Shown in pieces: positions 3,276 through 19,474 of a stretch of DNA of 30,097 bases. The position numbers were made by a program, and so were the translations under genes. The notes under the pieces were generated by a model. That model had not been told where the DNA came from and did no database searches. It saw nothing but the letters and a program-made list of their open reading frames with translations. Source of the stretch: Bacteroidota bacterium (GTDB lineage: Bacteria > Bacteroidota > Ignavibacteria > Ignavibacteriales > Ignavibacteriaceae); assembly GCA_024278655.1 (NCBI GenBank), contig JAJRSV010000394.1, forward strand, positions 1 to 30,097, read 5' to 3'. Positions within the stretch are counted from its first letter, which is position 1; each line of letters begins with the position of its first letter.

Positions 3276-3388
3276 AATGATTAAATACTCCTGTTTAATC
3301 AGGGAGTGCAACGGTTCAGATACCGGTTTAACGAGGTTGAATTTTTCTTTAAAACGGAAAATATTCATTTGTACCCACCGGCATTTGG

Positions 3389-3417
3389 TTGTTTAGGTTA
3401 TCCCTATTTTGTATTAT
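3389..3417 (+). promoter_or_regulatory. Candidate sigma70 promoter for the SDR-trxA-serA unit
   Basis: TTGTTT (3389-3394), 17-nt spacer, TATTAT (3412-3417), ~40 nt upstream of the ATG at 3459. Confidence 0.4.
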
Positions 3418-3458
3418 TGAACTCTCTAATAAAAATTACTTAGTTAAACACATTTTTT

Positions 3459-4274
3459 ATGAGTGATAACGAAAACAAAAATTATTGGGCGCTTATATTG
3501 GGTGCGTCATCGGGTTTTGGCGGTGCTACTGCTGTTAAACTTTCCGAAGACGGATACAATATAATCGGTATTCATCTCGACAGACAGGCAACAATCCCCA
3601 ATGTTGAAAAGATAATAAAGCAAATAAACGATAACGGACGGGAAGCATTGTTCTTTAACATAAATGCTGCCGATGAAATAAAGCGCAACGAAGTTGTGGC
3701 TGAACTAAAGGAAAAATTCAACGGTCAACCTGTAATTAAAGTTATAATGCATTCGCTTGCCTTTGGTACGCTCAAACCATTCGTAGGAAAAGAGAATGAG
3801 CGGATTACCAAAGCTCAGATGCAAATGACTTTAGACGTTATGGCGCATTCGCTTGTTTATTGGGTGCAGGAAATTCACGGTGCAAACCTGCTTACACGCA
3901 AAGGCAGAATATTTGCGATGACGAGTTCAGGAGGACATACATCAATTCCGTTTTATGGTGCGGTATCGGCTGCTAAAGCTGCTTTGGAATCGCACGTAAG
4001 ACAGTTGGCGGTAGAACTTGGACCGATGGAAGTTGGTGTTAATGCAATTATGGCAGGCGTTACCGATACACCCGCACTTCGGAAAATTCCGGGCAACGAA
4101 AACATGCTTAGAGTAGCGCTCGGTAAAAATCCGCATAACAGATTAACAACGCCGGAAGATATTGCCAAAGTAATTTCTTTGCTTTGCAGAGACGGGGGAG
4201 AATGGATAAGTGGAGGCATCATCAATGCAGACGGAGGAGAAGATATAGTTGGCTTTGCAATCCAGAAACAATAA
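3459..4274 (+). CDS. SDR-family oxidoreductase, FabL-like enoyl-[ACP] reductase
   Basis: Rossmann motif LGASSGFGG. Catalytic Y-x6-K (YGAVSAAK) is typical of ENRs rather than the classical SDR YxxxK. KAALE..RQLAVEL, VNAIMAGVTDTPAL and NADGG resemble B. subtilis FabL. Confidence 0.75.
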   Translation: MSDNENKNYWALILGASSGFGGATAVKLSEDGYNIIGIHLDRQATIPNVEKIIKQINDNGREALFFNINAADEIKRNEVVAELKEKFNGQPVIKVIMHSLAFGTLKPFVGKENERITKAQMQMTLDVMAHSLVYWVQEIHGANLLTRKGRIFAMTSSGGHTSIPFYGAVSAAKAALESHVRQLAVELGPMEVGVNAIMAGVTDTPALRKIPGNENMLRVALGKNPHNRLTTPEDIAKVISLLCRDGGEWISGGIINADGGEDIVGFAIQKQ

Positions 4275-4313
4275 AATTCATTTATCCGTAAAATCTTAAG
4301 TGAGGTACTAATT

Positions 4314-4634
4314 ATGGAACTAGTTACTATTACTGATGATAATTTCGAAGAGGAAGTTTTAAAATCCGACATACCTGTTATTATTGACTTTTGGGCAGTA
4401 TGGTGCGGTCCCTGCAGATTGATTGCTCCGATAATGGAAGAATTGGCTAAGGAATATGAAGGCAGGGTAAAAGTCGGTAAGTTAGATGTGGATTCGAATC
4501 AACAGACATCTATTAAGTACGGAGTAAGAAGCATTCCTACGTTACTTATTTTTAAAGACGGGAAAGTTGTCGATACTATTATTGGTGCCGTTCCGAAACA
4601 ACAGATAGTTGAAAAACTTAATGCGGTACTTTAA
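4314..4634 (+). CDS. trxA: Thioredoxin
   Basis: 106 aa with the WCGPC active site and the SIPT cis-Pro motif; GAGG SD upstream. Confidence 0.97.
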   Translation: MELVTITDDNFEEEVLKSDIPVIIDFWAVWCGPCRLIAPIMEELAKEYEGRVKVGKLDVDSNQQTSIKYGVRSIPTLLIFKDGKVVDTIIGAVPKQQIVEKLNAVL

Positions 4635-4656
4635 TCCTTCTAATAACAAATTTTAA

Positions 4657-6240
4657 ATGAAAAAAATATTTATTGCGGATTCCGTTTCCGAACAATGTGT
4701 TAAGGAACTGGAATCCGCCGGATATAAAGTTAACTACTCTACAAATCTCTCACCCGAAGAACTCAAATCGGAAATAAAAGATTATAATGCACTTGTTGTA
4801 CGAAGTGCTACAAAAGTTACCGCCGATTTAATAAGTGCGATGAACAATATGGAAGTAATCGGCAGGGCAGGAACCGGGGTTGACAATATAGACCTTGATG
4901 CCGCTACACGTAAAGGTATTTTGGTATTGAACACACCGGGCGGTAATACAATTTCGGCTGCAGAGCATACAATTGCAATGATTCTTTCGATGTGTCGCAA
5001 CATTCCGCAGGCAAACAAATCGCTTAGTGACGGCAAGTGGGAAAGAAAGAAATTCAAAGGTACCGAGCTTAAAGAAAAAACTCTCGGGCTGGTGGGTTTC
5101 GGAAGAATTGGAAGGGAGGTTGCAAAGCGGGCTTTATCTTTCGATATGAATGTTATAGCATTCGATCCGATAGTATCGGAAGACGTTGCTGAGAAATTAA
5201 ATGTAAAGTTGGTTTCGCTCGATGATATTTTCTCTCAGTCCGATATTATTTCGCTTCACATACCGCTTACTGATGCCACGAAAAATCTGATAAATAAAGA
5301 AACGATTTATAAATGTAAAAAAGGCGTGCGGATAGTTAACTGTGCCCGCGGCGGTTTGATTGATGAAGATGCACTTGTAAAAGCAATAGACGAAGGACAG
5401 GTATCGTCAGCGGCTATTGATGTCTTTAAAGATGAACCTCCTCCGGAAGAGAGTCCTGTTTTAAGCAACGAAAAAATTGTATGCACACCACACCTCGGCG
5501 CTTCAACATCCGAAGCACAGGAAAAAGTTGCCATCCAAATTGCAAGACAGATTATCGATTATTTTGAGAATAATAAAATCCAGGGCGCTGTAAACGCACC
5601 TGCCGCTAAAACCGAAGTTCCCGAAAAAATATTTCCGTTCATAAAACTTTCGGAAGTGATAGGCAAACTTCACAGCCAGCTTCTTTCGGAAAGAATTAAA
5701 GAAATTGAAATTAAATTTTTAGGTGAAGAACTACACGAAGCGGCGGACCTGTTAACAGCTTCGTTACTGAAAGGTTTATTGACCGGAAGAAAGGAACAAT
5801 CGGTTAATTTAATAAATGCACCTGTATTGGCTAAAGATGACGGAATAATTGTCAATCAGATAAAATCGGAAGAGAGCCGTGCTTACCTGAATTTAATATC
5901 TGCAGAGATAAAATTTGCAGGTTCGGGCAGGGTTATAGAAGGCACGGTAGTGGGCAAAAATGAGCTGCGGATTGTAAATATTGACGGCTTCCAGGTTGAA
6001 TTCAATCCCGAAGGAAGCATTGTCATTTATTATAATATCGACAAGCCGGGTGTATTAGCTAACTTCAGCAAGGTGTTAGCCGATTCTAAAGTGAACATTG
6101 CAGGTGTATCGTTAGGCAGAATTGAAGAGCGAAACGAAGCTTTAACCGTGGTTAAGGTTGACGGACAAATAAATAAAAATCTTCTAAAGCACTTGCAAAC
6201 GATAGAAGGTATAAATTATATTTATTCGGTCGATATTTAG
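4657..6240 (+). CDS. serA: D-3-phosphoglycerate dehydrogenase (long form with ASB and ACT domains)
   Basis: RAGTGVDNID, NTPGGNTISAAEH, GFGRIG, NCARGG and catalytic PHLGAST; C-terminal ACT domain (DKPGVL...VNIAG). Confidence 0.96.
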   Translation: MKKIFIADSVSEQCVKELESAGYKVNYSTNLSPEELKSEIKDYNALVVRSATKVTADLISAMNNMEVIGRAGTGVDNIDLDAATRKGILVLNTPGGNTISAAEHTIAMILSMCRNIPQANKSLSDGKWERKKFKGTELKEKTLGLVGFGRIGREVAKRALSFDMNVIAFDPIVSEDVAEKLNVKLVSLDDIFSQSDIISLHIPLTDATKNLINKETIYKCKKGVRIVNCARGGLIDEDALVKAIDEGQVSSAAIDVFKDEPPPEESPVLSNEKIVCTPHLGASTSEAQEKVAIQIARQIIDYFENNKIQGAVNAPAAKTEVPEKIFPFIKLSEVIGKLHSQLLSERIKEIEIKFLGEELHEAADLLTASLLKGLLTGRKEQSVNLINAPVLAKDDGIIVNQIKSEESRAYLNLISAEIKFAGSGRVIEGTVVGKNELRIVNIDGFQVEFNPEGSIVIYYNIDKPGVLANFSKVLADSKVNIAGVSLGRIEERNEALTVVKVDGQINKNLLKHLQTIEGINYIYSVDI

Positions 6241-6262
6241 TTTTAACGGAAAAATAGGTCTC

Positions 6263-6291
6263 TTGACATTTTTCGGGAAAAATCTTATTTC
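6263..6291 (+). promoter_or_regulatory. Candidate upstream sigma70 promoter P1 with an overlapping palindrome
   Basis: Perfect TTGACA (6263-6268), 17-nt spacer, weak -10 TATTTC (6286-6291). The spacer carries the inverted repeat ATTTTTC-GG-GAAAAAT (6268-6283). Confidence 0.4.
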
Positions 6292-6320
6292 ACTACTGGA
6301 AATATTGGATTTTAAAACAC

Positions 6321-6349
6321 TTGACATAAAATTGTGCTTGTGTTATTTT
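6321..6349 (+). promoter_or_regulatory. Strong sigma70 promoter P2 for the T9SS/TBDT locus
   Basis: TTGACA (6321-6326), 17-nt spacer, TATTTT (6344-6349) preceded by an extended -10 TG (6341-6342). SD AAGGAG lies before the ATG at 6430. Confidence 0.7.
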
Positions 6350-6429
6350 GGTTTCACAAATAATTGAAACATTACGTTTGAAAAAACTTAATAATCAATC
6401 ATAATTTCTCACAAATAAAGGAGAGCGCT

Positions 6430-8274
6430 ATGACCAGAAGATTTCCTATCTATATGATCTTATTGGTTTTCCTAACATCTTTTTCATTACTCTTTGCACA
6501 GAGTAAAAATGTTAAAGATTTAAGAATGCAATTACCAAATCCAGACTTTCATGCCCCAACCGTTGAAGGTTCAACTGTTGATGCACCTACAGGTGGCGGC
6601 GATGCTATGGTTTGGACAGGTTATGATTATGAAACAAACAATGCAACCAGAAGAATGTTAGATCTCGTTGATCTTGATGGTGACGGAACACCCGATCCAA
6701 TTATGGTTGCTATGAAAAGAGATGTTGAAGGCAGCACCAGACACGTTGTGTTCGGTTACAAAGCTTTTGGCGTCGTCGATACTGTAAACGCATTTGACGA
6801 TGCTCTTACTCCGGTTGGCTGGGGCGAAATTCAGTTTTGCGTTGGCGGTCCGATGGACGGCGAGGCTTTAGTAATGGCTCACGTTGGCGGTACTGCTCAT
6901 CATTCATGGATTGATCTTGTTAATTTAACACCAGTCCTTCCTTTTCCAACTGCTACATTCGGCGGCAATTGGCCATCATTTGTTTATTTAGGTTCGCAGG
7001 ATGGAACCATTATCGGTATTACAACCGATATGACATTCTACATTTCGGATGACGGCGGTGCTACATTTAATGCAGCATTCAATATTGGCGACGGCGATCC
7101 TAATGTTGATTTCGCACTTGCTTCGGATACACCGGCAGAAAATCCGTTAAGAAAATCGTATGATGATAATGTTATCGCAACTTTAGGGTGCTTCGCTGGT
7201 GTTGGAGTTAGCGGAAATCCTGATGTTGTATACTGGTATGGTTCAACCGATGGTGGTGCTACCTGGTTTGGCGATATCATCGGTGTTGGTTCCGCAGATT
7301 TCCCGGAATATGGTCAGGTTGTTAACAGAGACTATGCTCCATACTTCAATAACTTCGATCAGGTTGGCTATGATATAGATCCAACAGGTGTTACTCACGT
7401 AATGGTTAACGGTTACGGCGAAGGACTCTATATGGGCGGTGCTGATACAGTTAATGTTTATCCGATGCTTTACTGGAATAGCAACCATCGCCAGTGGATG
7501 GCTGTAACAGACGAAGCTATGGAAGCTCCTGATGATGGCTTCGGTAATACTATAGCTGATAATTATCCCGGAAACGGTATTGGTAATGCCTATGGTACAG
7601 TAGCTACAAGTTGGGACGGCCAGGTTGTATTTGTAATGTGGCAAGGTCCTGAGTGGACAGGCGAAATTGGTAACAGTGCTTACAATATTTACCCTGGAGA
7701 CGGTGGAGCTAACACCGGTCCTTCTTACTATACCGACATTTACTATCGTGCTTCTGAAGACGGCGGTGCTACCTGGGGTCCTGTTGGTATAATTGAAGGC
7801 GATGCTGGTGTTCAGGAATCTTACCCTGTTCTCGCTGCCGATCTTGAAGTTGTTGGCGACCAGGCAACTGCTCATTATATCTATTACATCGATCCCATTC
7901 CGGGAACAAGCTTGTTTGCCGGTGGTAACGGATTCGATCCTAACGGTGTTTGGATGTATAACACTTACACCTGGACACTTGCAACATCGGTTGACGATGA
8001 TGTAGTAGTTGATAAGTTCGAATTAGAACAGAATTATCCGAACCCGTTCAACCCAGCAACAACAATTAAGTATACACTTGCTGAACAAAGCAATGTGACA
8101 CTTAAAGTTTACGATATGTTAGGTAATGAAGTTGCAACACTTGTTAACGCTACCCAGCAGGCTGGTTCACATCAGGTTAATTTTGATGCTTCTAATCTTG
8201 CATCAGGATTGTACCTGTATACAATTAAAGCCGGAAACTTTACTTCAACTAAGAAAATGATGTTGTTGAAATAA
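6430..8274 (+). CDS. Secreted Asp-box (BNR) repeat, probable beta-propeller protein with a T9SS type A C-terminal sorting domain
   Basis: SPI signal peptide (...SLLFA|QSK), DLDGDGTPD loop and three SxDGGAT(W/F) Asp-boxes. Canonical CTD: FELEQNYPNPFNPATTIKY...LASGLYLYTIKAGNFTSTKKMMLLK. Confidence 0.85.
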   Translation: MTRRFPIYMILLVFLTSFSLLFAQSKNVKDLRMQLPNPDFHAPTVEGSTVDAPTGGGDAMVWTGYDYETNNATRRMLDLVDLDGDGTPDPIMVAMKRDVEGSTRHVVFGYKAFGVVDTVNAFDDALTPVGWGEIQFCVGGPMDGEALVMAHVGGTAHHSWIDLVNLTPVLPFPTATFGGNWPSFVYLGSQDGTIIGITTDMTFYISDDGGATFNAAFNIGDGDPNVDFALASDTPAENPLRKSYDDNVIATLGCFAGVGVSGNPDVVYWYGSTDGGATWFGDIIGVGSADFPEYGQVVNRDYAPYFNNFDQVGYDIDPTGVTHVMVNGYGEGLYMGGADTVNVYPMLYWNSNHRQWMAVTDEAMEAPDDGFGNTIADNYPGNGIGNAYGTVATSWDGQVVFVMWQGPEWTGEIGNSAYNIYPGDGGANTGPSYYTDIYYRASEDGGATWGPVGIIEGDAGVQESYPVLAADLEVVGDQATAHYIYYIDPIPGTSLFAGGNGFDPNGVWMYNTYTWTLATSVDDDVVVDKFELEQNYPNPFNPATTIKYTLAEQSNVTLKVYDMLGNEVATLVNATQQAGSHQVNFDASNLASGLYLYTIKAGNFTSTKKMMLLK

Positions 8275-8291
8275 TACGGTAATTTAGCAAT

Positions 8292-8345
8292 AACGGGTGG
8301 GTTACCAATAAATATATACGTTGGTTAATTCGCCCGTTTTTTTTT
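8292..8345 (+). terminator. Intrinsic terminator-like hairpin after the Asp-box gene
   Basis: AACGGGTGGGTTACCAA-12 nt-TTGGTTAATTCGCCCGTT, a long stem with G-U pairs and one bulge, followed by a T9 tract ending at 8345. Confidence 0.75.
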
Positions 8346-8399
8346 GATTATATTTTGATTCTTTTATGAAACATTTTTCAAAAACTTCGTGGAGAAGAG

Positions 8400-11282
8400 A
8401 TGAAAAGTTTGATTACAAAATTTACTGCAGTAATCTTTCTGCTTTTGTTTACCGTGCCGGCATTTGGTCAAACCGGTGTAGGAAAACTTAGCGGAAAAGT
8501 AGTTGATGCAGATACAAAAGAGCCGTTAATTGGTGCCAATGTTGTTATTCTGGGCACCGGGCTTGGTGCAGCTACCGACCTTGACGGTAATTATTATATC
8601 CTGAACATTACTCCAGGTACTTACTCGATCAAGGTTAGTTATGTTGGTTATGCACCTAAAACTATTCAGGATGTGAGAATAGTTGCAAACATTACTTACG
8701 AGTTAAATATTGAACTGAGCACCGATTTTACTTTGCCGGAAATTGTTGTTGAAAGTAAGAAGTTTTTCGAGCCGAAAGCTACAAACACCGTAAAGGTTAT
8801 AGACGCCGACCAGATTTCAAGACTTCCGGTTAGAGGCGTATCTAACTTTGTGGCACTTCAATCGGGCGTTGTAATTCAGGAAGGTAGCGGCGGTGCCGAT
8901 GGTAACGCAACTATTAACGTTCGGGGCGGTCGTGGTAGTGAGGTTCTTTACATCGTCGATGGTGTTCCTCAGAATAATTTATACAACCGTTCGAGTGTAG
9001 CACAGGTAAGTAATATTGCAATTGACCAGATTTCTTTCCAGGTTGGTGGTTACGAAGCTAAATACGGACAGGCTCAGTCTGGTATAGTAAACGTAACTAC
9101 AAAATCCGGACAATCTTACTACAGTGCATATTTCGATGTTTTAACTTCCACTTATACAGACCCTTACGACTATAACCTGTATTCCGGTTCTGTTAGTGGT
9201 CCATTAATTCCGGGTATTCCCGAGCATACGATATTTCTTTCGCTTGAACGCGGGTGGTTCAAAGATGCTAATCCGCCTGCTATTAAGCTGGAATTCCCCT
9301 CGATAGGTAAAACATACGATTTTATCCCTAACAATCCGGCAGATGTTTGGAGATTTAACGGTAAAATAAACTCCAGATTCGGTGGCTGGAAAATGACTGT
9401 TAGCGGACTGTGGAATAGACGTACCGCTAAAGTATTCGATTACAGAAAAATTAAAAACGATGCCGCTTTCCAGGATGAATTTTATCAGCAAAACGGTTCG
9501 GGAAGTTTTAGGATTTCTCAGACGGTTAGTGCAAGTACATTCTGGAACTTAACATTGGGTATGAGGCAGTTCGATTTCGAAAGGTATAATCCTTTCTTCA
9601 GAGACGGCAGTCACGTCGAAAACCTGATGGCTTACGGCGATAGCACAATATGGGCAAACAAACTTGGTGTTACTTTATTGGGCGACGGCAGAAGAACGGA
9701 TAACGTTGATGAGAACGGTGTGTTCAGACCTTACGGTTATGCTACCGGTTTGTATCAGCGCAGAGAAGATGATGCTATTACTGCCGATTTCGATTTTACC
9801 TCTCAGTTAGATAATCACCTGGTTGAGTTTGGTCTTGGTGTTTCTGCTCATACAATAAGAGGTTATGGTATTTTTGCTTACCGTTTGGCAAGTCAAACAC
9901 AACCTACTATAGAAGAAAAATTTATAAACCGTGCTCCTTTCGTTTTCGGTTACGACTATACCGGCGAGAGGAAAACTACTATGGATGAGCCGGCAACTAA
10001 CGACTTGCTCGAAAACGCTGGTTCTCATCCTTCTATGAATGAATTCATCAGACCGAGAAAACCTGTTCTTGCTTATGCTTATTTGCAGGACAGATTTGAG
10101 CTTGAAGATTTGGTTATTAACCTCGGTTTACGTTTAGATTATTTCGATATTAAATCACACGAACTTAAAAATCCCGAGCTTCCTTATGCCGGAGGTTTGG
10201 ACCCTACAAAATTTGATATTGAAGACTTTAAGATTAAAGATGTGGAAATTGAGCTTTCACCAAGAATCGGTATCGGTTTTCCTGTTACCGCTTCTACGGT
10301 TTTCCATGCTCAATACGGAAGATTTATTCAGGCACCCGAATTGAACGATATGTATTCGGGACCTTTTGGATACGATGACTTTATTTCTTTCGAACCACAG
10401 TTTGGTTTTAACGGCGGTTTGATAAGAGAAGAAACCACCCAGTACGAAGTTGGTTTCAGGCAATTGTTCGGTAACAGTTCGGCTATGAACATTACATTGT
10501 TCTATAAAAATACAAAAGGACTTGTAAACGTTCAGAATCATCAATATCGCAGAACACCGAATGGCGAAATATTAAATGCTATCTATCCTGAAAATGCCGA
10601 CTTTGGTACAGTTAAAGGTCTCGCATTTTCATTTGATGTAACCCGGTTAAGCTATTTCAGCTTATCGTTGCAGTACACCTATTCGTTAGCCGAAGGAACC
10701 GGTTCATCTACAAGTTCAAGTCAAACTGCGGTATTCAGAAATAACGACAATCAACCGCCTAAAGTTATCGCTCCTTTAAGCTTCGACCAGAGACATACCG
10801 GAGTATTGGTGGTGGATTTCTATATACCCGAAGGCGAAGCAGGACCATGGGAAATGTTGAATATCAACGCTTTATTCTCATTCCGCAGCGGTCGTCCTTA
10901 TACACCGGTTGATAACTGGAACCTGCTTGGCGATAACGGCTTATCTGCTAACAATACCGGTTATGTTAACTCGGCTTACGGTCCGGGTTCGTTCAGGGTT
11001 GATCTTAAAGTTGAAAAAAGCTTCCCCATCGGTGATTTCTATATTGTTCCTTACCTTTGGATTGAAAACTTGCTGGGAAGTATAAATGTTAATAATGTTT
11101 ATCGTTCTACAGGCGATCCGTATACCACCGGTTATTTGAATACCGATGCAGGAAGAATAGCTGTTGAAAATAACGGTGAAGGTTTTGCACAGGATTATCG
11201 AAGCTTAGAACGTAATCCGAGTAACTTTGGAATTCCTAGGTTAATTAAGTTAGGATTAAAGTTAAACTTTGCTCGATTTTAA
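8400..11282 (+). CDS. TonB-dependent receptor with an N-terminal carboxypeptidase-regulatory-like domain
   Basis: Signal peptide (...PAFG|QTG); CarboxypepD_reg-like domain (GKVVDADTKEPLIGANV...YVGY); TonB-box-like EIVVE; plug motifs VRGGR...YIVDGVP and GGYEAKYG...GIVNVTTKSG; barrel ending in C-terminal Phe (KLGLKLNFARF). Confidence 0.92.
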   Translation: MKSLITKFTAVIFLLLFTVPAFGQTGVGKLSGKVVDADTKEPLIGANVVILGTGLGAATDLDGNYYILNITPGTYSIKVSYVGYAPKTIQDVRIVANITYELNIELSTDFTLPEIVVESKKFFEPKATNTVKVIDADQISRLPVRGVSNFVALQSGVVIQEGSGGADGNATINVRGGRGSEVLYIVDGVPQNNLYNRSSVAQVSNIAIDQISFQVGGYEAKYGQAQSGIVNVTTKSGQSYYSAYFDVLTSTYTDPYDYNLYSGSVSGPLIPGIPEHTIFLSLERGWFKDANPPAIKLEFPSIGKTYDFIPNNPADVWRFNGKINSRFGGWKMTVSGLWNRRTAKVFDYRKIKNDAAFQDEFYQQNGSGSFRISQTVSASTFWNLTLGMRQFDFERYNPFFRDGSHVENLMAYGDSTIWANKLGVTLLGDGRRTDNVDENGVFRPYGYATGLYQRREDDAITADFDFTSQLDNHLVEFGLGVSAHTIRGYGIFAYRLASQTQPTIEEKFINRAPFVFGYDYTGERKTTMDEPATNDLLENAGSHPSMNEFIRPRKPVLAYAYLQDRFELEDLVINLGLRLDYFDIKSHELKNPELPYAGGLDPTKFDIEDFKIKDVEIELSPRIGIGFPVTASTVFHAQYGRFIQAPELNDMYSGPFGYDDFISFEPQFGFNGGLIREETTQYEVGFRQLFGNSSAMNITLFYKNTKGLVNVQNHQYRRTPNGEILNAIYPENADFGTVKGLAFSFDVTRLSYFSLSLQYTYSLAEGTGSSTSSSQTAVFRNNDNQPPKVIAPLSFDQRHTGVLVVDFYIPEGEAGPWEMLNINALFSFRSGRPYTPVDNWNLLGDNGLSANNTGYVNSAYGPGSFRVDLKVEKSFPIGDFYIVPYLWIENLLGSINVNNVYRSTGDPYTTGYLNTDAGRIAVENNGEGFAQDYRSLERNPSNFGIPRLIKLGLKLNFARF

Positions 11283-11321
11283 TTAGTTCTGAGGAATTTT
11301 CATAATATAGGATGATTGAAA

Positions 11322-14300
11322 ATGAAAAATAAAAAAATAAGTAACATTATTATGGTCTTTCTCCTTTTAGCCGGGGTTGTTTTAAGCTCCTACGGCTTTA
11401 TGGGAGATGATATTAAGGGCAATAAAAAGCCTCAAACTGTTTATAAGCAAACCTCCGAACTGGGGTCGGGTAAACAGGGCGATGCTTACAGAATGAATAT
11501 TAACAATATAAATCTTCCTTTTAACAGAAAAGGAAACATTGCAAATGTTAATATTTTCGACCCGACTATAAACGATAACAGATCGGGTGGAATTTTTGCC
11601 GGTCGCGTATTCCTGTTCTCTGCCGGTTTCTTTTTGACCGGTAATGCAAACGGACAGCTTTTTGCTAATGCTGTTGCTCCTTCTACACTGGTAGAAGATT
11701 ATGTGCCGGGTACTGTTGCTACCGGGCAGGGTAACCCGAATGCGGTTATCTATGTTCTTAAATCAACCGATGAGCCTTTCAGCCAAAGCTGGCAGGATTG
11801 GGTAGATGCCGTTAATTTAGGTGCCGATTTTTACGACGGCGACGGCGACGGTGTTTATAACCCTGTTGATAAGAACGGTAACGGTGCCTGGGACCCGGAT
11901 GAAGATGCACCTGATTTGATTGGTGATGAAACTGCCTGGTGCGTTTTTTACGATGGTCTTCCTTCCTCGCAAAGAAGATGGACTTCGGTTTCGCAGCTCG
12001 GTATCGAAGTTAGACAAACCATCTTTGCTTTTGCTTCTGCCGGTGCAATTGGAAACCTTATTTTCGTAAGATATAGGTTTACTTATATTGGCGGAGCAGA
12101 TATTTACGGTGACCCGGACGAATTAACAGATGTAATATTTGGTGTTTGGGCTGATCCCGATCTTGGTCAGTACGACGATGACCGTGTTGGTGTGGATGTT
12201 CCGCGTAATGCCGGATATACTTATAATGGTGAAGAAAATGACGATCAATACGGTACCCGTCCTCCTTGCTATATGATTGACTTCTTCTCGGGTCCGGCTT
12301 CATTTATTCCGGGTGAAACTTTTATTGATAACGACGGAGACGGAATCTATACCGATGGTGTGGATACTCCGCTCGATACAGCATATTCGGTACGTGGTCA
12401 GCTTTTGGGTGTTAAAGCAATTCCCGGGGCTAAAAACCTTCCCATTTCTTCATTTGTTGAATACCTTAACGGTGACCCGAATCTGAATGACCCGGCTAAT
12501 AAAGAAGAAGCACGTAATTATACATTAGGAAGAGACAGAGTGGGAGATATAGTCGATCCTTGTACATTCTCTCACGGTGAGGTTCTTGGAGGAGTAGATT
12601 GTACAACAATCGATCCGTTGTTCTGGTTCTCGGGTGATCCTGTTGATGGTACCGGTTGGGTATCGGTCGATGTGCAGGATGTAAGGCAAATGAGTAACAC
12701 TGGTCCGTTCACTCTTAAAAGAGGAGTGGAAAAGGAGATTGTTGTTGCTTATGTGGTTGGTCAGGGAACCGATTGGTTAAATAGTATAACTGTTGCACGT
12801 AAAATTGATGACGGTGCACAGAATATATTTGACCTGAACTTCCTTGCACCATCTCCGCCTCCACCGGTAAAACCCGAATTGAGCTCGAGCGATAACTTTA
12901 TTGATATCGTTTGGAATACATCCGATCAGGTTTCATATATAAATCAAACACCAACCTGGGATTTAAGATTCCATATATTCAATGTTTATGCATTCAGAAC
13001 GAACAACACTGCAGATGTTGTGCAGGGTGAACAAAACATTGTATTAATAGCATCGTACCAGGTTGATAACTTTATAGAAAACCTTTACAAAGAAAATTCT
13101 GAAACCGGTGGTATTGAAATGCTTTATCCTGAAGCACCGGCAGATAACAAATTAAATACTGAAGTTTATTCCGATCCTGAAACAGGCAGGATTAGATTGA
13201 GAATATATAACGATCCGTTTAGTCCTACTAAACCGATTACAAAAGGAAAACCATACTATTTTGCTGTAGTTGGTTCGGCAATCAACTACGATGCACTCAT
13301 ATTCAAGAGCGATCCGACACAACCGGTTGGTACGCAAGGTGATTATTATCTTACTGTAGAAGCATTCGCTCAGGAAGCTGAAAATCCGAAGAAGATAGTA
13401 AGCATTGTTGCCGGTTCGGATCTTTATAACCCACCTATAGATGTACAACCTGCTAATAAAATTGCCGGTCCATCTTTAGGCAGGGTTGGTTACGATATTA
13501 TTGACAATGCTGCATTAAAGAATGCAACTTACGAGGTAACATTCTTTAAAGATTCATCTTCTGCACAGTATAAAATGTTCTGGAAGTTAGAGGATATTAC
13601 CAATAATACAGTGCTTATCGATACAAGTGATAAGTACACTTACGGACTGTCGGAAGTAAGCCAGAAAGTGACCGATGGTTTTATAACCAGAGTTGAAGAA
13701 CAAATACCTACCATCGGCGAACCGACGTATGAACCGGCGGAAGCTGTTTGGTACGCTCCGTTCGATTCGGCTTCGAACACAGGTGCTATATATGTTGGAA
13801 AAGACATACCGCAAAGCAGGGTTCTGACTGAATTCGAAGGAAAACAATCCGATATAATTACTGCCGACAGGTTAAGAAAAGTTGAAATTAGATTTGGTGA
13901 TCAGGGTAAAGCTTATAGATACCTGAACGGTTACGTTGGCGTTGCACCTCCGCTTAGAAAGAAAACTTACCTTTATGCTGCCGGTGTTACATCCGATAAC
14001 CCCGATGTAACGGTTGATTTGAGCGGCGTTGGTAAGCTTGGCGAGGGCTTTGTTGATGTTCCGTTTACAGCATGGGTAGTTGATGAAAGATACGGTGAAG
14101 AAATGCAACTCGCTGTTGGATTTATTGAAAGTGCTCCGGATGTTGCCCCATTCCCGAACGGTAATCCCGACGGTCAATGGGACCCGGGCGATTCACTTAA
14201 TGCTTCCGGCGAAGTTATTATTATTTTTGATGCTCCATATGATCCTTCCGGAGGGCAAATTGAATATACAGGTGGTGTATTCGGCGATACTTTGGCGTGG

Positions 14301-14897
14301 GCTGACTTAATGAAATCGGCTTTAGCCAAAGAACTGCCTGTTAGCGCTCCGGCAACCGATGAACAAAGAGAAATATTTAATTCACCTTGGTTTAATGCAA
14401 TGTATGTTGTGGGGTTGCAGAGGAAAGACTCAACCTCATTCTTTACACCGGGAGATAAACTGACTATTCCTATCGATGTATATCCTTACACCGAGGCTGA
14501 TGTTTATCAGTTTACTTTAACCGGAACTACTATAACTGAGGATGATGAGAGAGCACTATTCGAAAAGGTTAATGTTTATCCTAATCCTCTTTATGGTTAC
14601 AATACTTTAACCGGTTACGACGGAACGCCACCTGACGAACCGTTTGTTACATTCACCAATTTACCGACTGATATAACAGTTAAGATATACTCATTATCCG
14701 GTCAGTTATTACGCACATTAACAACCGATGATAAGAGCGAACCCACATCTCCGTTCCTGAGATGGGATCTGCTTAACGAAAACGGTTTACGTGTTGCTTC
14801 CGGATTGTATCTGGCGGTTGTATCGTCACCTAAATTCGGTGATAAAGTATTGAAGTTCACGATAATTATGCCGCAGAAACAGATACCAAGGTTCTAA
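11322..14897 (+). CDS. Large (~1190 aa) secreted protein of unknown function with DxDxDG Ca-binding-like loops and a divergent T9SS-type CTD
   Basis: The hydrophobic N-terminus is a signal peptide. ATG 11322 is preferred over TTG 11316 because AGGA lies 9 nt upstream. Pro-rich hinge APSPPPPVKP. The C-terminus VNVYPNP...VKIYSLSGQLLRTL...RWDLLNENGLRVASGLYL...KVLKFTII is an Ig-like CTD. Confidence 0.8.
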   Translation: MKNKKISNIIMVFLLLAGVVLSSYGFMGDDIKGNKKPQTVYKQTSELGSGKQGDAYRMNINNINLPFNRKGNIANVNIFDPTINDNRSGGIFAGRVFLFSAGFFLTGNANGQLFANAVAPSTLVEDYVPGTVATGQGNPNAVIYVLKSTDEPFSQSWQDWVDAVNLGADFYDGDGDGVYNPVDKNGNGAWDPDEDAPDLIGDETAWCVFYDGLPSSQRRWTSVSQLGIEVRQTIFAFASAGAIGNLIFVRYRFTYIGGADIYGDPDELTDVIFGVWADPDLGQYDDDRVGVDVPRNAGYTYNGEENDDQYGTRPPCYMIDFFSGPASFIPGETFIDNDGDGIYTDGVDTPLDTAYSVRGQLLGVKAIPGAKNLPISSFVEYLNGDPNLNDPANKEEARNYTLGRDRVGDIVDPCTFSHGEVLGGVDCTTIDPLFWFSGDPVDGTGWVSVDVQDVRQMSNTGPFTLKRGVEKEIVVAYVVGQGTDWLNSITVARKIDDGAQNIFDLNFLAPSPPPPVKPELSSSDNFIDIVWNTSDQVSYINQTPTWDLRFHIFNVYAFRTNNTADVVQGEQNIVLIASYQVDNFIENLYKENSETGGIEMLYPEAPADNKLNTEVYSDPETGRIRLRIYNDPFSPTKPITKGKPYYFAVVGSAINYDALIFKSDPTQPVGTQGDYYLTVEAFAQEAENPKKIVSIVAGSDLYNPPIDVQPANKIAGPSLGRVGYDIIDNAALKNATYEVTFFKDSSSAQYKMFWKLEDITNNTVLIDTSDKYTYGLSEVSQKVTDGFITRVEEQIPTIGEPTYEPAEAVWYAPFDSASNTGAIYVGKDIPQSRVLTEFEGKQSDIITADRLRKVEIRFGDQGKAYRYLNGYVGVAPPLRKKTYLYAAGVTSDNPDVTVDLSGVGKLGEGFVDVPFTAWVVDERYGEEMQLAVGFIESAPDVAPFPNGNPDGQWDPGDSLNASGEVIIIFDAPYDPSGGQIEYTGGVFGDTLAWADLMKSALAKELPVSAPATDEQREIFNSPWFNAMYVVGLQRKDSTSFFTPGDKLTIPIDVYPYTEADVYQFTLTGTTITEDDERALFEKVNVYPNPLYGYNTLTGYDGTPPDEPFVTFTNLPTDITVKIYSLSGQLLRTLTTDDKSEPTSPFLRWDLLNENGLRVASGLYLAVVSSPKFGDKVLKFTIIMPQKQIPRF

Positions 14898-14910
14898 ATT
14901 GAATTTTAAC

Positions 14911-14936
14911 GGGCAGGTGCAAGTGTGCACCTGCCT
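14911..14936 (+). promoter_or_regulatory. GC-rich intergenic stem-loop without a U-tract (mRNA stabiliser or processing site)
   Basis: GGCAGGTGCA-agtg-TGCACCTGCC, a perfect 10-bp stem followed by TATTG rather than poly-T. Confidence 0.65.
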
Positions 14937-14973
14937 ATTGAAAAATTTATGAAAAATATGTGGAGTTTATAAA

Positions 14974-15993
14974 ATGAAAAAAATATTACTAATAATATTC
15001 AGCCTTGTCTTTGCAGCATCGCTTTATGCCGGTGATGTCTCGAGGAAAGGAACAACCGGTGCTGAGGAGCTCCTCATTCCTGTTGGTGCCCGGGGTATCG
15101 CTACGGGTGGAGCATTCCTTGCCAACATTACCGGGCTGGAAGCTTTGTTCTATAACCCTGCAGGATTGGATATTACACCGAGAACCGAGGCAATGTTCAG
15201 CTATGTTAATTACCTGGCTGATATTAACATTTCCTACTTTGCCGTAGGTACATCGCTTGGCGATTTCGGATCGATTGCTTTCGATTTGAAATCATTCGAC
15301 TTCGGTGATATTCCTATTACTACCGTTGAATTTCCGGATGGAACCGGGCAAACTTATTCGCCTACGTTTCTTACAATCGGATTTACTTACTCGAAGGTAC
15401 TTACCGACAGAATTTCGATAGGTACTAATTTTAAGCTCATATCCGAAAATATCCAAAACGTAAGTTCAACCGGTTTTGCAGTTGATGCCGGTGTTCAGTA
15501 CCGCTTTACCGAATCGTTTATGCTGGCGGCTACTGTTAAAAATATCGGTACTAATATGCAGTTTTCCGGTCAGAATTTAAGAACCAGAACAAAAATTCCC
15601 GGTTCAACTCCTAACTCGGAAGACGGAACATACGAGATTGTTGCTGAAACGTTCCAGATACCCAGTTTCTTCGAACTGGCATTAGCTTATAAATTCAACT
15701 TTAACGAGCAGAACAACCTCGCTATTGCCGGAACGTTTGTGGCAAACAATGCTTTGGAAGATGCCCTTAACTTTGGGCTTGAGTACGGTTTTATGAACAC
15801 GTTTTATGTACGCGGTGGTTATAATCTTAAACTCGAAAACCAGTCCAATAATGTTTACGGGTTTACCGCCGGTGCGGGAATTGACTACAGTGTTGGTGGC
15901 GACTTCGGAATAATTTTCGATTACGCTTTCAGAGACGTAAAAGAATTTCCGAGTGCTAACCATATCTTTACAGTTAAACTTACGTTTGAATAA
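14974..15993 (+). CDS. PorV/PorQ-family (UPF0164, FadL-like) outer-membrane beta-barrel protein
   Basis: Signal peptide (...SLYA|GDV); N-terminal KGTTGAEELLIPVGARGIATGGAF...LFYNPAGL typical of the family; alternating beta-strands ending HIFTVKLTFE. Confidence 0.88.
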   Translation: MKKILLIIFSLVFAASLYAGDVSRKGTTGAEELLIPVGARGIATGGAFLANITGLEALFYNPAGLDITPRTEAMFSYVNYLADINISYFAVGTSLGDFGSIAFDLKSFDFGDIPITTVEFPDGTGQTYSPTFLTIGFTYSKVLTDRISIGTNFKLISENIQNVSSTGFAVDAGVQYRFTESFMLAATVKNIGTNMQFSGQNLRTRTKIPGSTPNSEDGTYEIVAETFQIPSFFELALAYKFNFNEQNNLAIAGTFVANNALEDALNFGLEYGFMNTFYVRGGYNLKLENQSNNVYGFTAGAGIDYSVGGDFGIIFDYAFRDVKEFPSANHIFTVKLTFE

Positions 15994-16013
15994 AAGGTGA
16001 GTTTAGGTCATTT

Positions 16014-16053
16014 AAGCGTCTATTGAATTTTCAATAGACGCTTTTTTATTTTT
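16014..16053 (+). terminator. Intrinsic terminator closing the TBDT/PorV locus
   Basis: AAGCGTCTATTGA-attt-TCAATAGACGCTT, a 13-bp perfect stem followed by TTTTATTTTT. Confidence 0.9.
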
Positions 16054-16075
16054 GAATAAACAAAACCAGATAGTG

Positions 16076-17440
16076 ATGAAAAAGATTACATTTATATTAT
16101 TTGTATTATTAAGCGTAAATGTTTTTGCGCAAGGTAATTTCGATTTTGAATTCGACTATGCACAGTTTTCGTACGATACTACTGCTAACTACGTTGAGTT
16201 CTATTACTCATTCAATCAATCCTCTTTAAGTATTGAACATACCGACACGCTCGATTTAGCCGAAGGCATTTTACAAATATTTATTGAAGATACTCTTACT
16301 AAAAATGTAATAGTAAATAAAAACTGGTTAATCTATCATGCGGTTTCCGACTCTTCGAAGAATGAAACGCTGGTTGGTGTAGTTGGCTTTATTTTAGATG
16401 GCGGCACGTATAAATGCACTATTGTCGGAAGAGACAAGTTGGATGAAAACAGGAAAAGAGCAATTACCGAGTACATCACGGTTAATCCTTTTCTCAGGGT
16501 TAATCTATCGATGAGTGACATTCAGCTTGCATCAAATATAATTCCCGAAAGCGAAAACAAATCGTCCATCTTCTACAAAAACACATTTGAGGTAATGCCC
16601 ATCCCAACTGCAGTGTTCGGCGAAAAGCAGCCGGTTGTATTCTTTTATACCGAATTGTATAACGTGAAAGACGGCGGTGGTGCGAACGACCTCGATTTCA
16701 GCCAGAAGGTTTATAACAGCCGCGGTCAGGTTGTATATCAGAAAAGTAAAAAGATAAAAAGAACAGTTAATTCCCGGGTTGAAGTAGGCACCGTTATGGC
16801 ATACAAACTGCCCACGGATGCTTACACACTAGTGCTTTCGTTAATTGACAGTGCTGCTAATTTCGGGGTTTCTTCTTCTAAAAAGTTTTACATTATCAAT
16901 CCTTCGGTTGAATATATTGATACATTCAAGACGGAGGAGAAATCGTTTGTGGCTGGAATGTTCGGAGTTATGTCTGAAGAAGAACTGGACGACTTCTTCA
17001 GAAAATCGAGATACATAGCTACCGATAAAGAGATTGAAAAGTATGAATCGTTAACTACCGAAGTAGGTAAGAGACAATTTATGACCGATTTCTGGAAAGC
17101 CCGTGATGAAGATCCTTCGGATGACAGAAACCAGTTCCTGACCGATTATATGGATAGAATTGCCGAGTGTAATCTGAAGTACGGTGCTTTGGGTAAAGAG
17201 GGCTGGCAAACCGACAGGGGACGCGTTTATCTGATTTACGGCGAACCGAGCGAAATTGAACGGCACCCGAACGAAACTGAAACACGACCTTACGAAATTT
17301 GGTACTACAACGAAATTGAAGGCGGTGTTGTTTTCATCTTTGCCGATATTACAGGTTTTTCGGACTATGTTCTCGTGCATTCTACTAAAAGGGGTGAAAT
17401 GCGGGATGAAAGCTGGCAGAGACGAATCGTCATAAGATAA
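16076..17440 (+). CDS. Secreted/periplasmic GWxTD-domain protein
   Basis: ATG 16076 is preferred because TTG 16052 lies in the terminator tail. Signal peptide (...NVFA|QGN); C-terminal DFWKARD...GWQTDRGRVYLIYGEP...YEIWYY is the GWxTD domain. Confidence 0.9.
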   Translation: MKKITFILFVLLSVNVFAQGNFDFEFDYAQFSYDTTANYVEFYYSFNQSSLSIEHTDTLDLAEGILQIFIEDTLTKNVIVNKNWLIYHAVSDSSKNETLVGVVGFILDGGTYKCTIVGRDKLDENRKRAITEYITVNPFLRVNLSMSDIQLASNIIPESENKSSIFYKNTFEVMPIPTAVFGEKQPVVFFYTELYNVKDGGGANDLDFSQKVYNSRGQVVYQKSKKIKRTVNSRVEVGTVMAYKLPTDAYTLVLSLIDSAANFGVSSSKKFYIINPSVEYIDTFKTEEKSFVAGMFGVMSEEELDDFFRKSRYIATDKEIEKYESLTTEVGKRQFMTDFWKARDEDPSDDRNQFLTDYMDRIAECNLKYGALGKEGWQTDRGRVYLIYGEPSEIERHPNETETRPYEIWYYNEIEGGVVFIFADITGFSDYVLVHSTKRGEMRDESWQRRIVIR

Positions 17441-17481
17441 ATTTGTTGTTAATATAATTCCTGTTGTTACATTATTTTTTT

Positions 17482-17510
17482 AAGCCCTGCCGATAGGGCT
17501 TTTTATTTTT
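17482..17510 (+). terminator. Intrinsic terminator after the GWxTD gene
   Basis: AAGCCCT-gccgat-AGGGCTT followed by TTTATTTTT. Confidence 0.75.
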
Positions 17511-17585
17511 AAATAAAGTGCGGCTTACCCGAATTATTTTCTAATGATTCGTTATTTTTACAGATACTTGTTTCAGGAAAAACAG

Positions 17586-18455
17586 ATGAAAAATATTTTT
17601 GAATATATATTGTTTCTTGGGTTCAGCCGGATGTTCCGGTTGATAGGTTTGCGTTTATCCAGAAAGTTTGCCGTAGTTCTGGCTTTTGTTTTTTACTACC
17701 TGATTCCCATTCGTAAGGAAACTGTAATCGATAATCTGCTTCATGCTTTTCCCGGATATGATGATAAGAAAATCCGGCAGATTGCATTCGATAATTATAA
17801 AAGTTTTGCAATTACACTGATTGAAATTTTGTATATGCCCGCAATGAGCAGCGAAGATATTAAGAAAGTTATTAAATGCAACAACGTGGAATACGTTCGT
17901 GAAAAATATAACGAGGGCAACGGCTTAATACTTCTTTCGGCACACTTCGGAAACTGGGAATTTATGGCTGCATCAATGGGTGTACAGCTTGGAGTGCCGC
18001 TTTCGATTGTGGTTAAACCTCAGCGTAATCCTTACGTTACCGATTGGCTTAACAGAACGCGTGCAAAGTGGAACAACCAAATTGTTCCGCTCGGTATTTC
18101 CATCAGAAAGATATATCAAACATTAAAAGAAAAAAAGATTGTGGCTATGGTTGCCGACCAGAGAGGTCCGCAGGAAAGCATAAAAGTTAATTTTTTCGGA
18201 AGAGAAGTTTCGGCACATGTAGGACCCGCAGTGCTTGCGTTAAAAACCGGCGCACCAATATTATACGGCGTTCCGGTAAGGCAGAAAGATTTTTCATACG
18301 AAACTGTGTTTACCGAAATATCGAAAGAAAACCTGCCCGATTCTCACGAAGAAAAAATAAAAGAACTAACGCAAAGGCATATGAGTTACCTTGAAGAATT
18401 CATAAGAAAATATCCCGAACAATGGTTGTGGATGTACAAACGATGGAAACACTGA
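17586..18455 (+). CDS. LpxL/HtrB-family lipid A (lysophospholipid) acyltransferase
   Basis: N-terminal membrane anchor; SAHFGNWE, VADQ and QWLWMYKRWK motifs. ATG 17586 has a CAGGA SD; the alternative start is 17544. Confidence 0.88.
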   Translation: MKNIFEYILFLGFSRMFRLIGLRLSRKFAVVLAFVFYYLIPIRKETVIDNLLHAFPGYDDKKIRQIAFDNYKSFAITLIEILYMPAMSSEDIKKVIKCNNVEYVREKYNEGNGLILLSAHFGNWEFMAASMGVQLGVPLSIVVKPQRNPYVTDWLNRTRAKWNNQIVPLGISIRKIYQTLKEKKIVAMVADQRGPQESIKVNFFGREVSAHVGPAVLALKTGAPILYGVPVRQKDFSYETVFTEISKENLPDSHEEKIKELTQRHMSYLEEFIRKYPEQWLWMYKRWKH

Positions 18456-19474
18456 AAGAAAAAATACTCGTTATTCAAACAGCATTTTTGGGTGATGCTG
18501 TTCTTACGCTTCCGTTAATCCAAAAGCTTAGTGAAATATTTCCGCAGTCGTTAATAGATGTAATTGCAATTCCGGCTACGGAAGAAATTTTCTCCGCTTC
18601 TCCTTATGTTTCAAGCGTGTTTGTGCTCGATAAAAAAGGCAGGCATAAAGGCATCAAGCGTTTAATCGGGTTTATATCGGAACTTAAGAAAAACAACTAC
18701 ACAAAACTGTATTCGCCGCACCGCTCTTTCCGAAGCGGACTTATTACTTTGGGACTCGGCGTTAAGGATTCATACGGTTTCGATACGAGCAGTTTTAAAT
18801 TCGCGTATAAAACTCTTGTTAAGTATAACCTGAATGATCACGAAGTGAAAAGAAATTTATCTCTCGTATCGAATGAATTGAATAATGATGATTGGAAAAT
18901 ATTACCCGAAGTAGAACTGAATGAAACATCCACTGAAAAAATAAAAAACTACGTGTCTGCTAATAATTTAAGTAAAGGGTTTATAGCAGTTGCGCCCGGC
19001 AGCGTGTGGCAAACAAAAGTTTATCCGCAGGAATACTTTGCAGAAATTGCAAAGGAATTATTGCATCGGAATGAAAAGATAGTTTTAATCGGCGGTGAGA
19101 ACGACAAGAACATTTGCGACGATATTGCATTTAATTTAGAGAAAAATGTATATGTTTCGGCAGGCGAATTTACCCCGGTAGAAACAATAGGTTTGCTGAA
19201 GTATTCTAAACTTTTAATTACCAACGACAGTGCACCGACTCATTTGGGAATGTGTGCCGATATTCCGGTAATTACTTTATATTGTTCAACTGTTCCGGGA
19301 TTTGGTTTTTATCCGTATAATAACGGAAGCTCTTATTTAAGTTACGACAAACTGGAGTGTAAACCCTGCGGTATTCACGGTTTCAATCAATGTCCGGTCG
19401 GCACTTTCGATTGCGGGTACAAACTTAAACCGGAAACCGTTATTCAAAAAATAAATAATATTTTGGGACGATGA
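18443..19474 (+). CDS. Glycosyltransferase family 9 (LPS heptosyltransferase RfaF/WaaF-like)
   Basis: KILVIQTAFLGDAVL, APGSVWQTKVYP, ITNDSAPTHLG and C-terminal CKPCGIHG..C. The likely start, ATG 18443, overlaps the upstream stop. Confidence 0.9.
   Translation: METLKEKILVIQTAFLGDAVLTLPLIQKLSEIFPQSLIDVIAIPATEEIFSASPYVSSVFVLDKKGRHKGIKRLIGFISELKKNNYTKLYSPHRSFRSGLITLGLGVKDSYGFDTSSFKFAYKTLVKYNLNDHEVKRNLSLVSNELNNDDWKILPEVELNETSTEKIKNYVSANNLSKGFIAVAPGSVWQTKVYPQEYFAEIAKELLHRNEKIVLIGGENDKNICDDIAFNLEKNVYVSAGEFTPVETIGLLKYSKLLITNDSAPTHLGMCADIPVITLYCSTVPGFGFYPYNNGSSYLSYDKLECKPCGIHGFNQCPVGTFDCGYKLKPETVIQKINNILGR

Follow-up and report, generated by a model that had tools for sequence, protein, structure and literature searches.

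A TonB-dependent transporter, a large secreted protein with a type IX sorting domain and a PorV/PorQ-family barrel form a candidate outer-membrane module in Ignavibacteria

Introduction

In Bacteroidia, the capture job in TonB-dependent nutrient uptake falls to the SusD and SusE/F lipoproteins. Here, we describe a gene trio from a genome of the Ignavibacteriaceae (GenBank assembly GCA_024278655.1) that probably encodes a nutrient-capture machine different from the SusC/SusD pair. It comprises a TonB-dependent transporter (TBDT; g2), a large secreted protein (g3) and an outer-membrane barrel of the PorV/PorQ family (g4). The window, by which we mean the whole stretch of DNA analysed, covers positions 1 to 30,097 (30,097 nucleotides, nt) of the forward strand of contig JAJRSV010000394.1 (contig C348 of host genome G000, which has 3.37 Mb in 486 contigs and is 89% complete). 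We propose, with moderate confidence, that g2, g3 and g4 make up one outer-membrane module, in which g3 would be exported by a type IX secretion system (T9SS), docked on g4 by its C-terminal domain (CTD) and tail, and serve as the capture partner of g2; that the module works in uptake and that g2 touches g3 are the parts that we infer.

On the transporter side, the trio is best compared with the SusC/SusD (RagA/RagB) systems and utilisomes. The TBDT has the same N-terminal extension and plug, the adjoining gene would likewise encode a non-catalytic surface partner, and paralogous trios lie, as SusC/SusD loci do, beside genes for CBM proteins and for secreted enzymes of families GH16, GH3 and GH13. 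In contrast to these systems, g2 fails the SusC model, no SusD-fold lipoprotein was found in the host genome, and g3 is an unlipidated all-beta protein of about 1,190 residues with a T9SS CTD, accompanied by a third gene for a PorV/PorQ-type barrel. A non-SusD surface protein in a stable capture complex on a TBDT is described for BtuB-BtuG of Bacteroides (PMC10404256); unlike g3, BtuG is a beta-propeller of the lipoprotein kind, for which neither a T9SS nor an anchoring barrel is needed.

On the secretion side, the CTD of T9SS cargo binds the loops of PorV inside SprA, and solved structures of PorV-CTD complexes exist (PMC10994853). PorU and PorZ keep their CTDs, which bind PorV and PorQ, and cognate PorV-like barrels have been proposed to protect the CTD from cleavage (PMC10202324). 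The pair formed by g3 and g4 resembles PorZ-PorQ and PorU-PorV as a T9SS cargo with a CTD that would be retained on a barrel of the same family; the tails of PorZ and PorU are the closest to the CTD of g3, and docking on g4 is predicted. It differs in that the passenger of g3 is unrelated, the pair is coupled to a TBDT and present in several paralogous copies per genome, and the CTD carries an extra tail that usually has an aromatic end. For cargo with a type B CTD, such as SprB with SprF, a cognate PorP/SprF-like barrel is needed for secretion or anchoring (PMC9143113; PMC10202324). The order of a large cargo gene followed by its own small barrel gene is shared with g3 and g4, whereas g4 is not a PorP/SprF protein, the CTD of g3 is type A-like rather than type B, and no TBDT takes part in such systems. 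[quoted passage not shown]

The trio would bring together a TBDT that has a surface partner and a CTD that stays on a PorV/PorQ-type barrel, each of them a known principle. Full-text literature searches returned no description of a TBDT/large-protein/barrel trio. New here are a docking prediction with controls, a class-specific C-terminal tail, a core-genome slot with block replacement, and a probable separate transcription of the upstream gene g1.

Results

The original prediction, made from the DNA sequence and its open reading frames, described four co-oriented genes for an Asp-box protein with a CTD, a TBDT, a CTD protein of about 1190 residues and a PorV/PorQ-type barrel, and the reading frames and family searches agree with it. 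The last three form the trio:

8400..11282, + strand: g2, 960-residue TBDT with a CarboxypepD_reg-like domain, a Plug domain and a barrel, ending in -ARF
11316..14897, + strand: g3, 1193-residue secreted all-beta protein with a signal peptide and a variant type A CTD; the probable start is the ATG at 11322
14974..15993, + strand: g4, 339-residue outer-membrane barrel of the PorV/PorQ family with a Sec signal peptide (NF033709, 169.5 bits)

The spacers are 33 nt between g2 and g3 and 76 nt between g3 and g4. As read from the sequence, the N-termini of all four proteins are Sec-signal-like and lack a lipobox cysteine, in keeping with the earlier statement that none has a lipoprotein signal.

Conservation and copy number of the trio

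The conservation of the trio was assessed from the barrel side, an anchor chosen to keep g3 itself from defining the count. An alignment of g4 relatives (A2) was searched against contigs from one genome per species, and the best 80 of 499 relatives were kept. Among these, a g3-family gene ends less than 400 nt upstream of the barrel gene in 62 of the 63 loci with at least 3.6 kb of upstream sequence. The order TBDT, large protein, barrel is present in 56 of the 57 loci with at least 7.5 kb, the sole exception having a TBDT gene and a 3-kb gap in the gene calls. In these loci the spacers have medians of 32 and 54 nt, and the median large protein has 1145 residues. According to the record titles, the loci stem from Ignavibacteria, Melioribacter roseus (L105), two Calditrichia (L113, L114) and Candidatus Kryptonium thompsonii (L144). 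Of 121 genomes searched with g3 across the class, 84 have the family, and the best loci show the trio down to g3 identities of 26-28%. Closed genomes hold several copies, with four trios and one TBDT-barrel pair in G046, three and one in G079, and one trio in G082; the fragmented host genome holds at least four further partial modules (on C317, C290, C4 and C426). The statement in the original prediction that the triad recurs in many copies in non-Bacteroidia genomes of the FCB group is thereby substantiated for these lineages, and the survey of gene neighbourhoods around PorV/PorQ homologues that it proposed returned the expected gene order.

A core-genome slot with two cassette types

The locus is preceded in the window by dnaE, an SDR gene, a thioredoxin gene and serA, and followed by genes for a GWxTD protein, a lipid A acyltransferase, a GT9 heptosyltransferase, Sua5, an M23 peptidase and bactofilin and by the ATP synthase operon. 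This whole gene order is kept in two other Ignavibacteria chromosomes (g3 54-60% identical), and therefore the window copy occupies a core-genome slot rather than an island of carbohydrate-active enzyme (CAZyme) genes. In 42 of 70 barrel-anchored loci, the GWxTD gene follows directly downstream, and the cultivable Melioribacter roseus has the same five-gene locus (L105).

We compared identities to the window in G046, which belongs to the same GTDB family as the host, with those in G056, G026 and G002. The region G046:C1:646000-680000 (L151, L152) is the slot orthologous to window positions 1-19500, with the flanks dnaE to serA and LpxL-like/GT9 and a second-class trio between them. The flanking genes are closer to the window in G046 than in the other three genomes (dnaE 74% vs 63-67%, SDR 72% vs 61-64%, LpxL-like 55% vs 42-49%), whereas the trio shows the reverse (TBDT 32% vs 54-61%, g3 26% vs 49-54%, g4 42% vs 57-66%). 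The GWxTD gene lies outside the replaced block (46% vs 39-48%). Across GWxTD-linked loci, TBDT identities to the window split into two classes, one at 49-71% and one at 29-33%, and none lies between them, while GWxTD identities overlap between the classes (in L123, for example, GWxTD is 54% and the TBDT 33% identical). The GWxTD protein is a fixed downstream neighbour of both cassette classes and is duplicated in L078, L093, L095, L096 and L105-L107. Judged from these identities, two deeply diverged cassette types share the slot and have replaced each other as a block. Such block replacement is evidence, separate from the gene order, for a joint function of the three proteins.

The slot of G046 also holds three extra g3-family genes after the GWxTD gene, without a barrel or TBDT gene of their own.

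The barrel, the sorting domain and its tail

The NF033709 score of g4 lies well above the family cut-off of 90 bits and spans model positions 1-326. Neither the PorV model (NF033710, 68.7 bits, cut-off 250) nor the PorQ model (NF033711, 101.8 bits, cut-off 220) reaches its threshold, and PorP/SprF (TIGR03519) scores 18.8 bits against a cut-off of 90.55. In agreement with the family assignment, g4 matches the solved Flavobacterium johnsoniae PorV (chain 6h3i_F, E 8.8e-8), and its orthologues are 71-83% identical.

Elsewhere in the host genome, contig C242 (8037-11508, L035) carries two tandem PorV/PorQ-like barrel genes with no adjacent TBDT gene; upstream of this pair lie genes for a 520-residue BNR protein with a CTD-like end and for a lipoprotein.

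The variant type A CTD of g3 comprises residues 1084-1183 (nt 14565-14864). Matches of the last ~110 residues are weak (PorZ tail NF052228, E 1.9e-7; TIGR04183, 17.7 bits, cut-off 23). In an alignment with local type A CTDs and with the tail of PorU, the domain nevertheless shows the shared blocks YPNP, NLP...IKIYSLSG and WD...G..VASGLY; its peculiarities are an insertion that follows the first strand and an excess of nine residues behind the last. Some g3 orthologues bear the NCBI title 'T9SS type A sorting domain-containing protein'. Over its full length g3 is not a PorZ, as NF052228 gives 29.9 bits against a cut-off of 260 and matches in the CTD region only, and neither the PorU sortase model (NF033707) nor a C25 peptidase matched g3. 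We accordingly rejected g3-g4 as the canonical PorU-PorV pair, the true one lying on host contig C330 (PorU, 995.8 bits, followed by PorV, 309 bits). The host also has SprA, split over C363 and C264, and PorZ on C237, and 130 further tblastn matches to the CTD of g1 are spread over 92 host contigs.

The extra residues of g3 form the conserved tail MPQKQIPRF (nt 14865-14894). An extension of 8-9 residues after the last CTD strand was found in all 73 large proteins adjoining g4-like barrels, 62 of which end in F or Y. In the class of the window the tail reads PQKQ[IL]x[RK][FY], in other classes [QPM]E[QTE]Q..D.. or similar, and more distant trios (paralogues in G046, C290) have ordinary CTD ends ('...GKFAIIK').

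A complex prediction for g3 residues 1070-1193 with g4 residues 20-339, of the kind suggested by the original prediction for the barrel and the CTD, placed the CTD of g3 on g4 with an ipSAE of 0.93, the best of three controls reaching 0.00. The docking mark is reached by 58 of 80 solved complexes and by 2 of 110 mismatched pairs, counts that are rough because our own alignments were used. The predicted interface involves tail residues 1184-1188 and a conserved N-terminal segment of the barrel. Because PorV-CTD complexes have already been solved (PMC10994853), this prediction speaks for a PorV-like docking rather than for specificity of the barrel.

The transporter and the absence of a SusC/SusD pair

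The TBDT carries a CarboxypepD_reg-like domain at residues 30-117 (nt 8487-8750), a Plug domain (PF07715, E 1.7e-12) at residues 127-228 (nt 8778-9083) and, as read from the sequence, a possible TonB box 'EIVVES' at residues 112-117. Its barrel region gave weak matches to TIGRFAM models of TonB-receptor subfamilies, all below their cut-offs, and a scan of g2 with Pfam gave no match to any barrel family. Going by its plug, large barrel and putative TonB box, g2 is a TonB-dependent receptor in the general sense. It scores 86.3 bits with the SusC/RagA model (TIGR04056, cut-off 368.25), restricted to model positions 2-208, that is, the N-terminal extension and the plug. No SusC above the TIGR04056 cut-off and no match to SusD (PF07980) were found in the whole host genome at its 89% completeness, and the description of the module as SusD-less thus holds. 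SusD occurs in 39 of the 121 class genomes, with 1-4 matches each. We also considered a complementary distribution of SusD and the g3 family; the tendency is slight (18 of the 37 genomes that lack the g3 family have SusD, vs 21 of the 84 that have it), and, the relatives not being independent, it was not used as evidence.

Fold and neighbours of the large protein

No Pfam family scored over its cut-off in g3, a profile search against PDB sequences returned nothing, and no catalytic family or motif was found in the protein. An AlphaFold2 model built from 41 homologues (mean pLDDT 81.8) predicts that residues ~50-510 (nt 11463-12845) form a galactose-mutarotase-like beta-supersandwich. Its best structural match is the sugar-binding N-domain of a GH94 cellodextrin phosphorylase (Z 19.1, root-mean-square deviation 3.7, 258 residues aligned with VIA-align), followed by the same domain of GH15, GH65 and GH116 enzymes (Z 17-19). 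The supersandwich is followed by a proline-rich linker and an Fn3-like domain at residues ~515-705 (Z ~7). Residues ~706-1075 are beta-rich without a convincing known fold, the best match being FlgK/FlgL-like and weak (Z 8.5 over 83 residues). Folded alone, the middle part reaches a pLDDT of 89.9; it is the variable portion of g3, and a profile made from it barely recovers the paralogues. Whole-model Foldseek searches against the PDB and AFDB retrieved only multi-domain beta proteins and uncharacterised T9SS cargo, and the supersandwich domain also occurs in many T9SS cargo proteins of ~570 and ~1000 residues. Overall, g3 has the look of a protein that binds or serves as a scaffold, not of an enzyme.

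In the host, contigs C308 and C107 carry tandem arrays of genes for type A CTD proteins of ~920-985 residues that do not adjoin TBDT or barrel genes; the second domain of these proteins is 42-45% identical to the supersandwich of g3 (residues ~40-520).

The paralogous trios of G046 have informative neighbours. One lies beside a CBM9 protein with a CTD, an enzyme combining GH16, malectin and CTD, and a GH3 enzyme; another beside a starch-CBM protein with a CTD and a GH13 amylase with a CTD and a SusG-type C-domain; a third has an M14 carboxypeptidase as its neighbour. The CAZyme-type neighbours support a role of the module in general in nutrient capture and import.

Transcription signals, g1 and further features

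The remaining features of the locus are:

6321..6349, + strand: sigma-70-like promoter match upstream of g1 (TTGACA, 17-nt spacer, TATTTT with an extended -10 TG), a consensus match only
6430..8274, + strand: g1, 614-residue secreted protein of the BNR/Asp-box beta-propeller type with a canonical type A T9SS CTD at residues 536-611 (nt 8035-8262)
8292..8347, + strand: hairpin of 18 bp with U9 after g1, terminator- or attenuator-like (minimum free energy -30.8 kcal/mol for 8270-8405)
14911..14936, + strand: perfect, GC-rich 11-bp hairpin without a U-run in the g3-g4 spacer (z = -4.83)
16014..16053, + strand: intrinsic terminator closing the g2-g4 unit, a 13-bp stem (16014-16043) followed by a T-run (z = -5.38)
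16052..17440, + strand: g5, the GWxTD-domain protein (TIGR04514, E 2.8e-31), beyond the terminator

The original prediction placed all four genes in a single unit, behind one strong promoter and ahead of a terminator. The terminator after g4 is present as described. A sigma-70-type match is also present and agrees with the consensus at 10 of 12 positions; such matches are no commoner than in shuffled sequence (21 found vs 29.3 expected), and this one counts as a consensus match only. The single unit probably does not hold, because a stable hairpin with U9 directly follows g1 and a stable structure is found in the g1-g2 spacer in all 21 orthologous loci examined, pointing to separate termination; in all probability g1 is transcribed by itself, with g2-g3-g4 as the core unit. 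Hairpins are present in the g3-g4 spacer in most of the 21 orthologous loci, and the 11-bp hairpin of the window may be an element of mRNA processing or stability that sets the ratio of large protein to barrel. Rfam gave no match to a riboswitch or other known RNA in the whole window and hence no clue to the substrate upstream.

The tail of g1 matches PF18962 (E 7e-14) and TIGR04183 (52.4 bits, cut-off 23), the mark of a type A CTD. A profile of 14 positional homologues of g1 gave only local Asp-box matches, to sialidases and a GH74 xyloglucanase, and a call as an enzyme was dropped, the similarity being confined to the Asp-box level. In L071-L109, the gene at this position always has a type A CTD and usually encodes ~600 residues (range 438-1006). 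Its passenger domain is often only partly alignable (21-54% identity to the window) and far less conserved than g2-g4. We regard g1 as probably an accessory binding or processing protein of the locus, a T9SS-secreted BNR beta-propeller made from its own transcript.

Discussion

In the mechanism that we propose, Sec would carry g3 over the inner membrane, after which g3 would be recognised by way of the variant type A CTD and pass the T9SS translocon. The CTD would remain uncleaved and, together with the tail of 8-9 residues, stay docked on the private barrel g4, much as PorZ stays on PorQ and PorU on PorV. In this way, g4 would hold the non-catalytic g3, with its carbohydrate-binding-type supersandwich and its Fn3/Ig-like domains, on the surface beside g2, and g3 would capture a substrate, most likely a glycan, and pass it to g2. 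Taken further and more tentatively, the trio could represent a third way to build TonB-dependent uptake, in which the substrate-capturing lid or arm is not lacking, nor a lipoprotein like SusD and BtuG, but a T9SS cargo (~1,100-1,200 residues) that an uncleaved CTD and tail keep for good on its private PorQ-like barrel, and in which the trio is swapped as a cassette, with two ancient types alternating in a core slot.

Several observations weigh against this proposal. The CTD of g3 remains below the curated cut-offs, and the docking prediction may reflect a memory of the solved PorV-CTD translocon structures. In three places a TBDT gene is directly followed by a barrel gene with no large gene between them (C426:1611-5394, L034; G046:C1:2118781-2122555; G079:C1:365000-368841), which suggests that the barrel may associate with the TBDT itself. 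The window copy has housekeeping and lipopolysaccharide (LPS) genes around it and no CAZyme neighbours, so that 'glycan' is an extrapolation from the paralogues and one fold. Lastly, the secretion machinery gives a mixed answer to the search for sprA, porU and porK/L/M/N that the original prediction recommended: SprA, PorU, PorV and PorZ score over their cut-offs in the host, whereas GldL, GldM and GldN were not detected there (TIGR03513, TIGR03517, TIGR03523, PF12081, PF19841). The three TIGRFAM models matched no control genome either, and those negatives are uninformative. PF12081 (GldM_1st) and PF19841 (GldN) each matched none of nine relatives; PF12081 had no match in the sampled class genomes and did match in nine other Bacteroidota genomes, and the Pfam negative for GldM is therefore informative. 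The T9SS motor of these Ignavibacteria may be divergent, different, missing or unassembled.

The two-gene variant on C426 is flanked by genes for two lipoproteins, one with an NHL repeat, and for a CTD protein.

The alternative that survives best, which we nonetheless consider unlikely, is that g4 is a dedicated shuttle that replaces the general PorV at SprA for g3, with g3 released or otherwise anchored and the link to the TBDT regulatory rather than physical. PorV-family barrels do act as shuttles, the CTD binding PorV loops inside SprA (PMC10994853), the PorP/SprF proteins for type B cargo offer an analogy, cargo and barrel genes adjoin each other, and the docking prediction fits a shuttle just as well. 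However, a shuttle does not account for the TBDT gene, found in 56 of 57 loci and exchanged along with the pair, nor for the TBDT-barrel pairs that lack a large gene.

Less probable still is a variable surface structure, with g3 as an adhesin, an S-layer-like protein or a shield on a platform of barrel and TBDT, and with two cassette types kept in the slot by diversifying or frequency-dependent selection, for instance by phages that use TBDTs as receptors. The deep divergence of two cassette classes in one conserved slot would suit such a role, as would the fast evolution of the g1 passenger and the g3 middle region, the housekeeping and LPS neighbours, and the extra g3-family genes without barrels in the G046 slot. 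It is at odds with the complete Plug domain and plausible TonB box that g2 keeps, with the paralogous trios in beta-glucan and starch loci, and with the identity among g4 orthologues, which indicates strong purifying selection.

That g3 and g4 are instead an extra T9SS attachment pair of the PorZ/PorQ or PorU/PorV kind, processing or anchoring other cargo beside an incidental TBDT, seems very unlikely to us: the higher score of g4 with the PorQ than with the PorV model, the match of the g3 tail to the PorZ CTD and the nearby LPS genes lean that way, but canonical PorU, PorV and PorZ are encoded elsewhere in the genome, g3 matches no C25 peptidase and matches PorZ in the CTD only, and the several paralogous trios per genome each have a TBDT of their own. 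Export of g3 through g2, in the manner of the Myxococcus Oar protein, a CarboxypepD_reg-type TBDT needed for protein secretion, is highly improbable, since the N-terminal CarboxypepD_reg domain of g2 and its lack of a SusD partner are outweighed by a recognisable T9SS CTD on g3 that is predicted to dock on a PorV-family barrel, by SprA in the host, and by a Pfam scan of g2 without any barrel family.

Sediments, mats, hot springs and bioreactors commonly contain degraders from the Ignavibacteria, Kryptonia and Calditrichia, most of which have few or no SusC/SusD pairs. The class-specific tail, the block replacement of the cassette and the cultivable Melioribacter roseus provide experimental handles. 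If the trio is their outer-membrane unit for capture and import, it would explain how these lineages take up polymers and would serve as an annotation marker for loci resembling polysaccharide utilisation loci ('PUL-like' loci) outside Bacteroidia, and the T9SS and the PorV/PorQ family would gain a further function, the permanent non-covalent anchoring of a transporter's partner.

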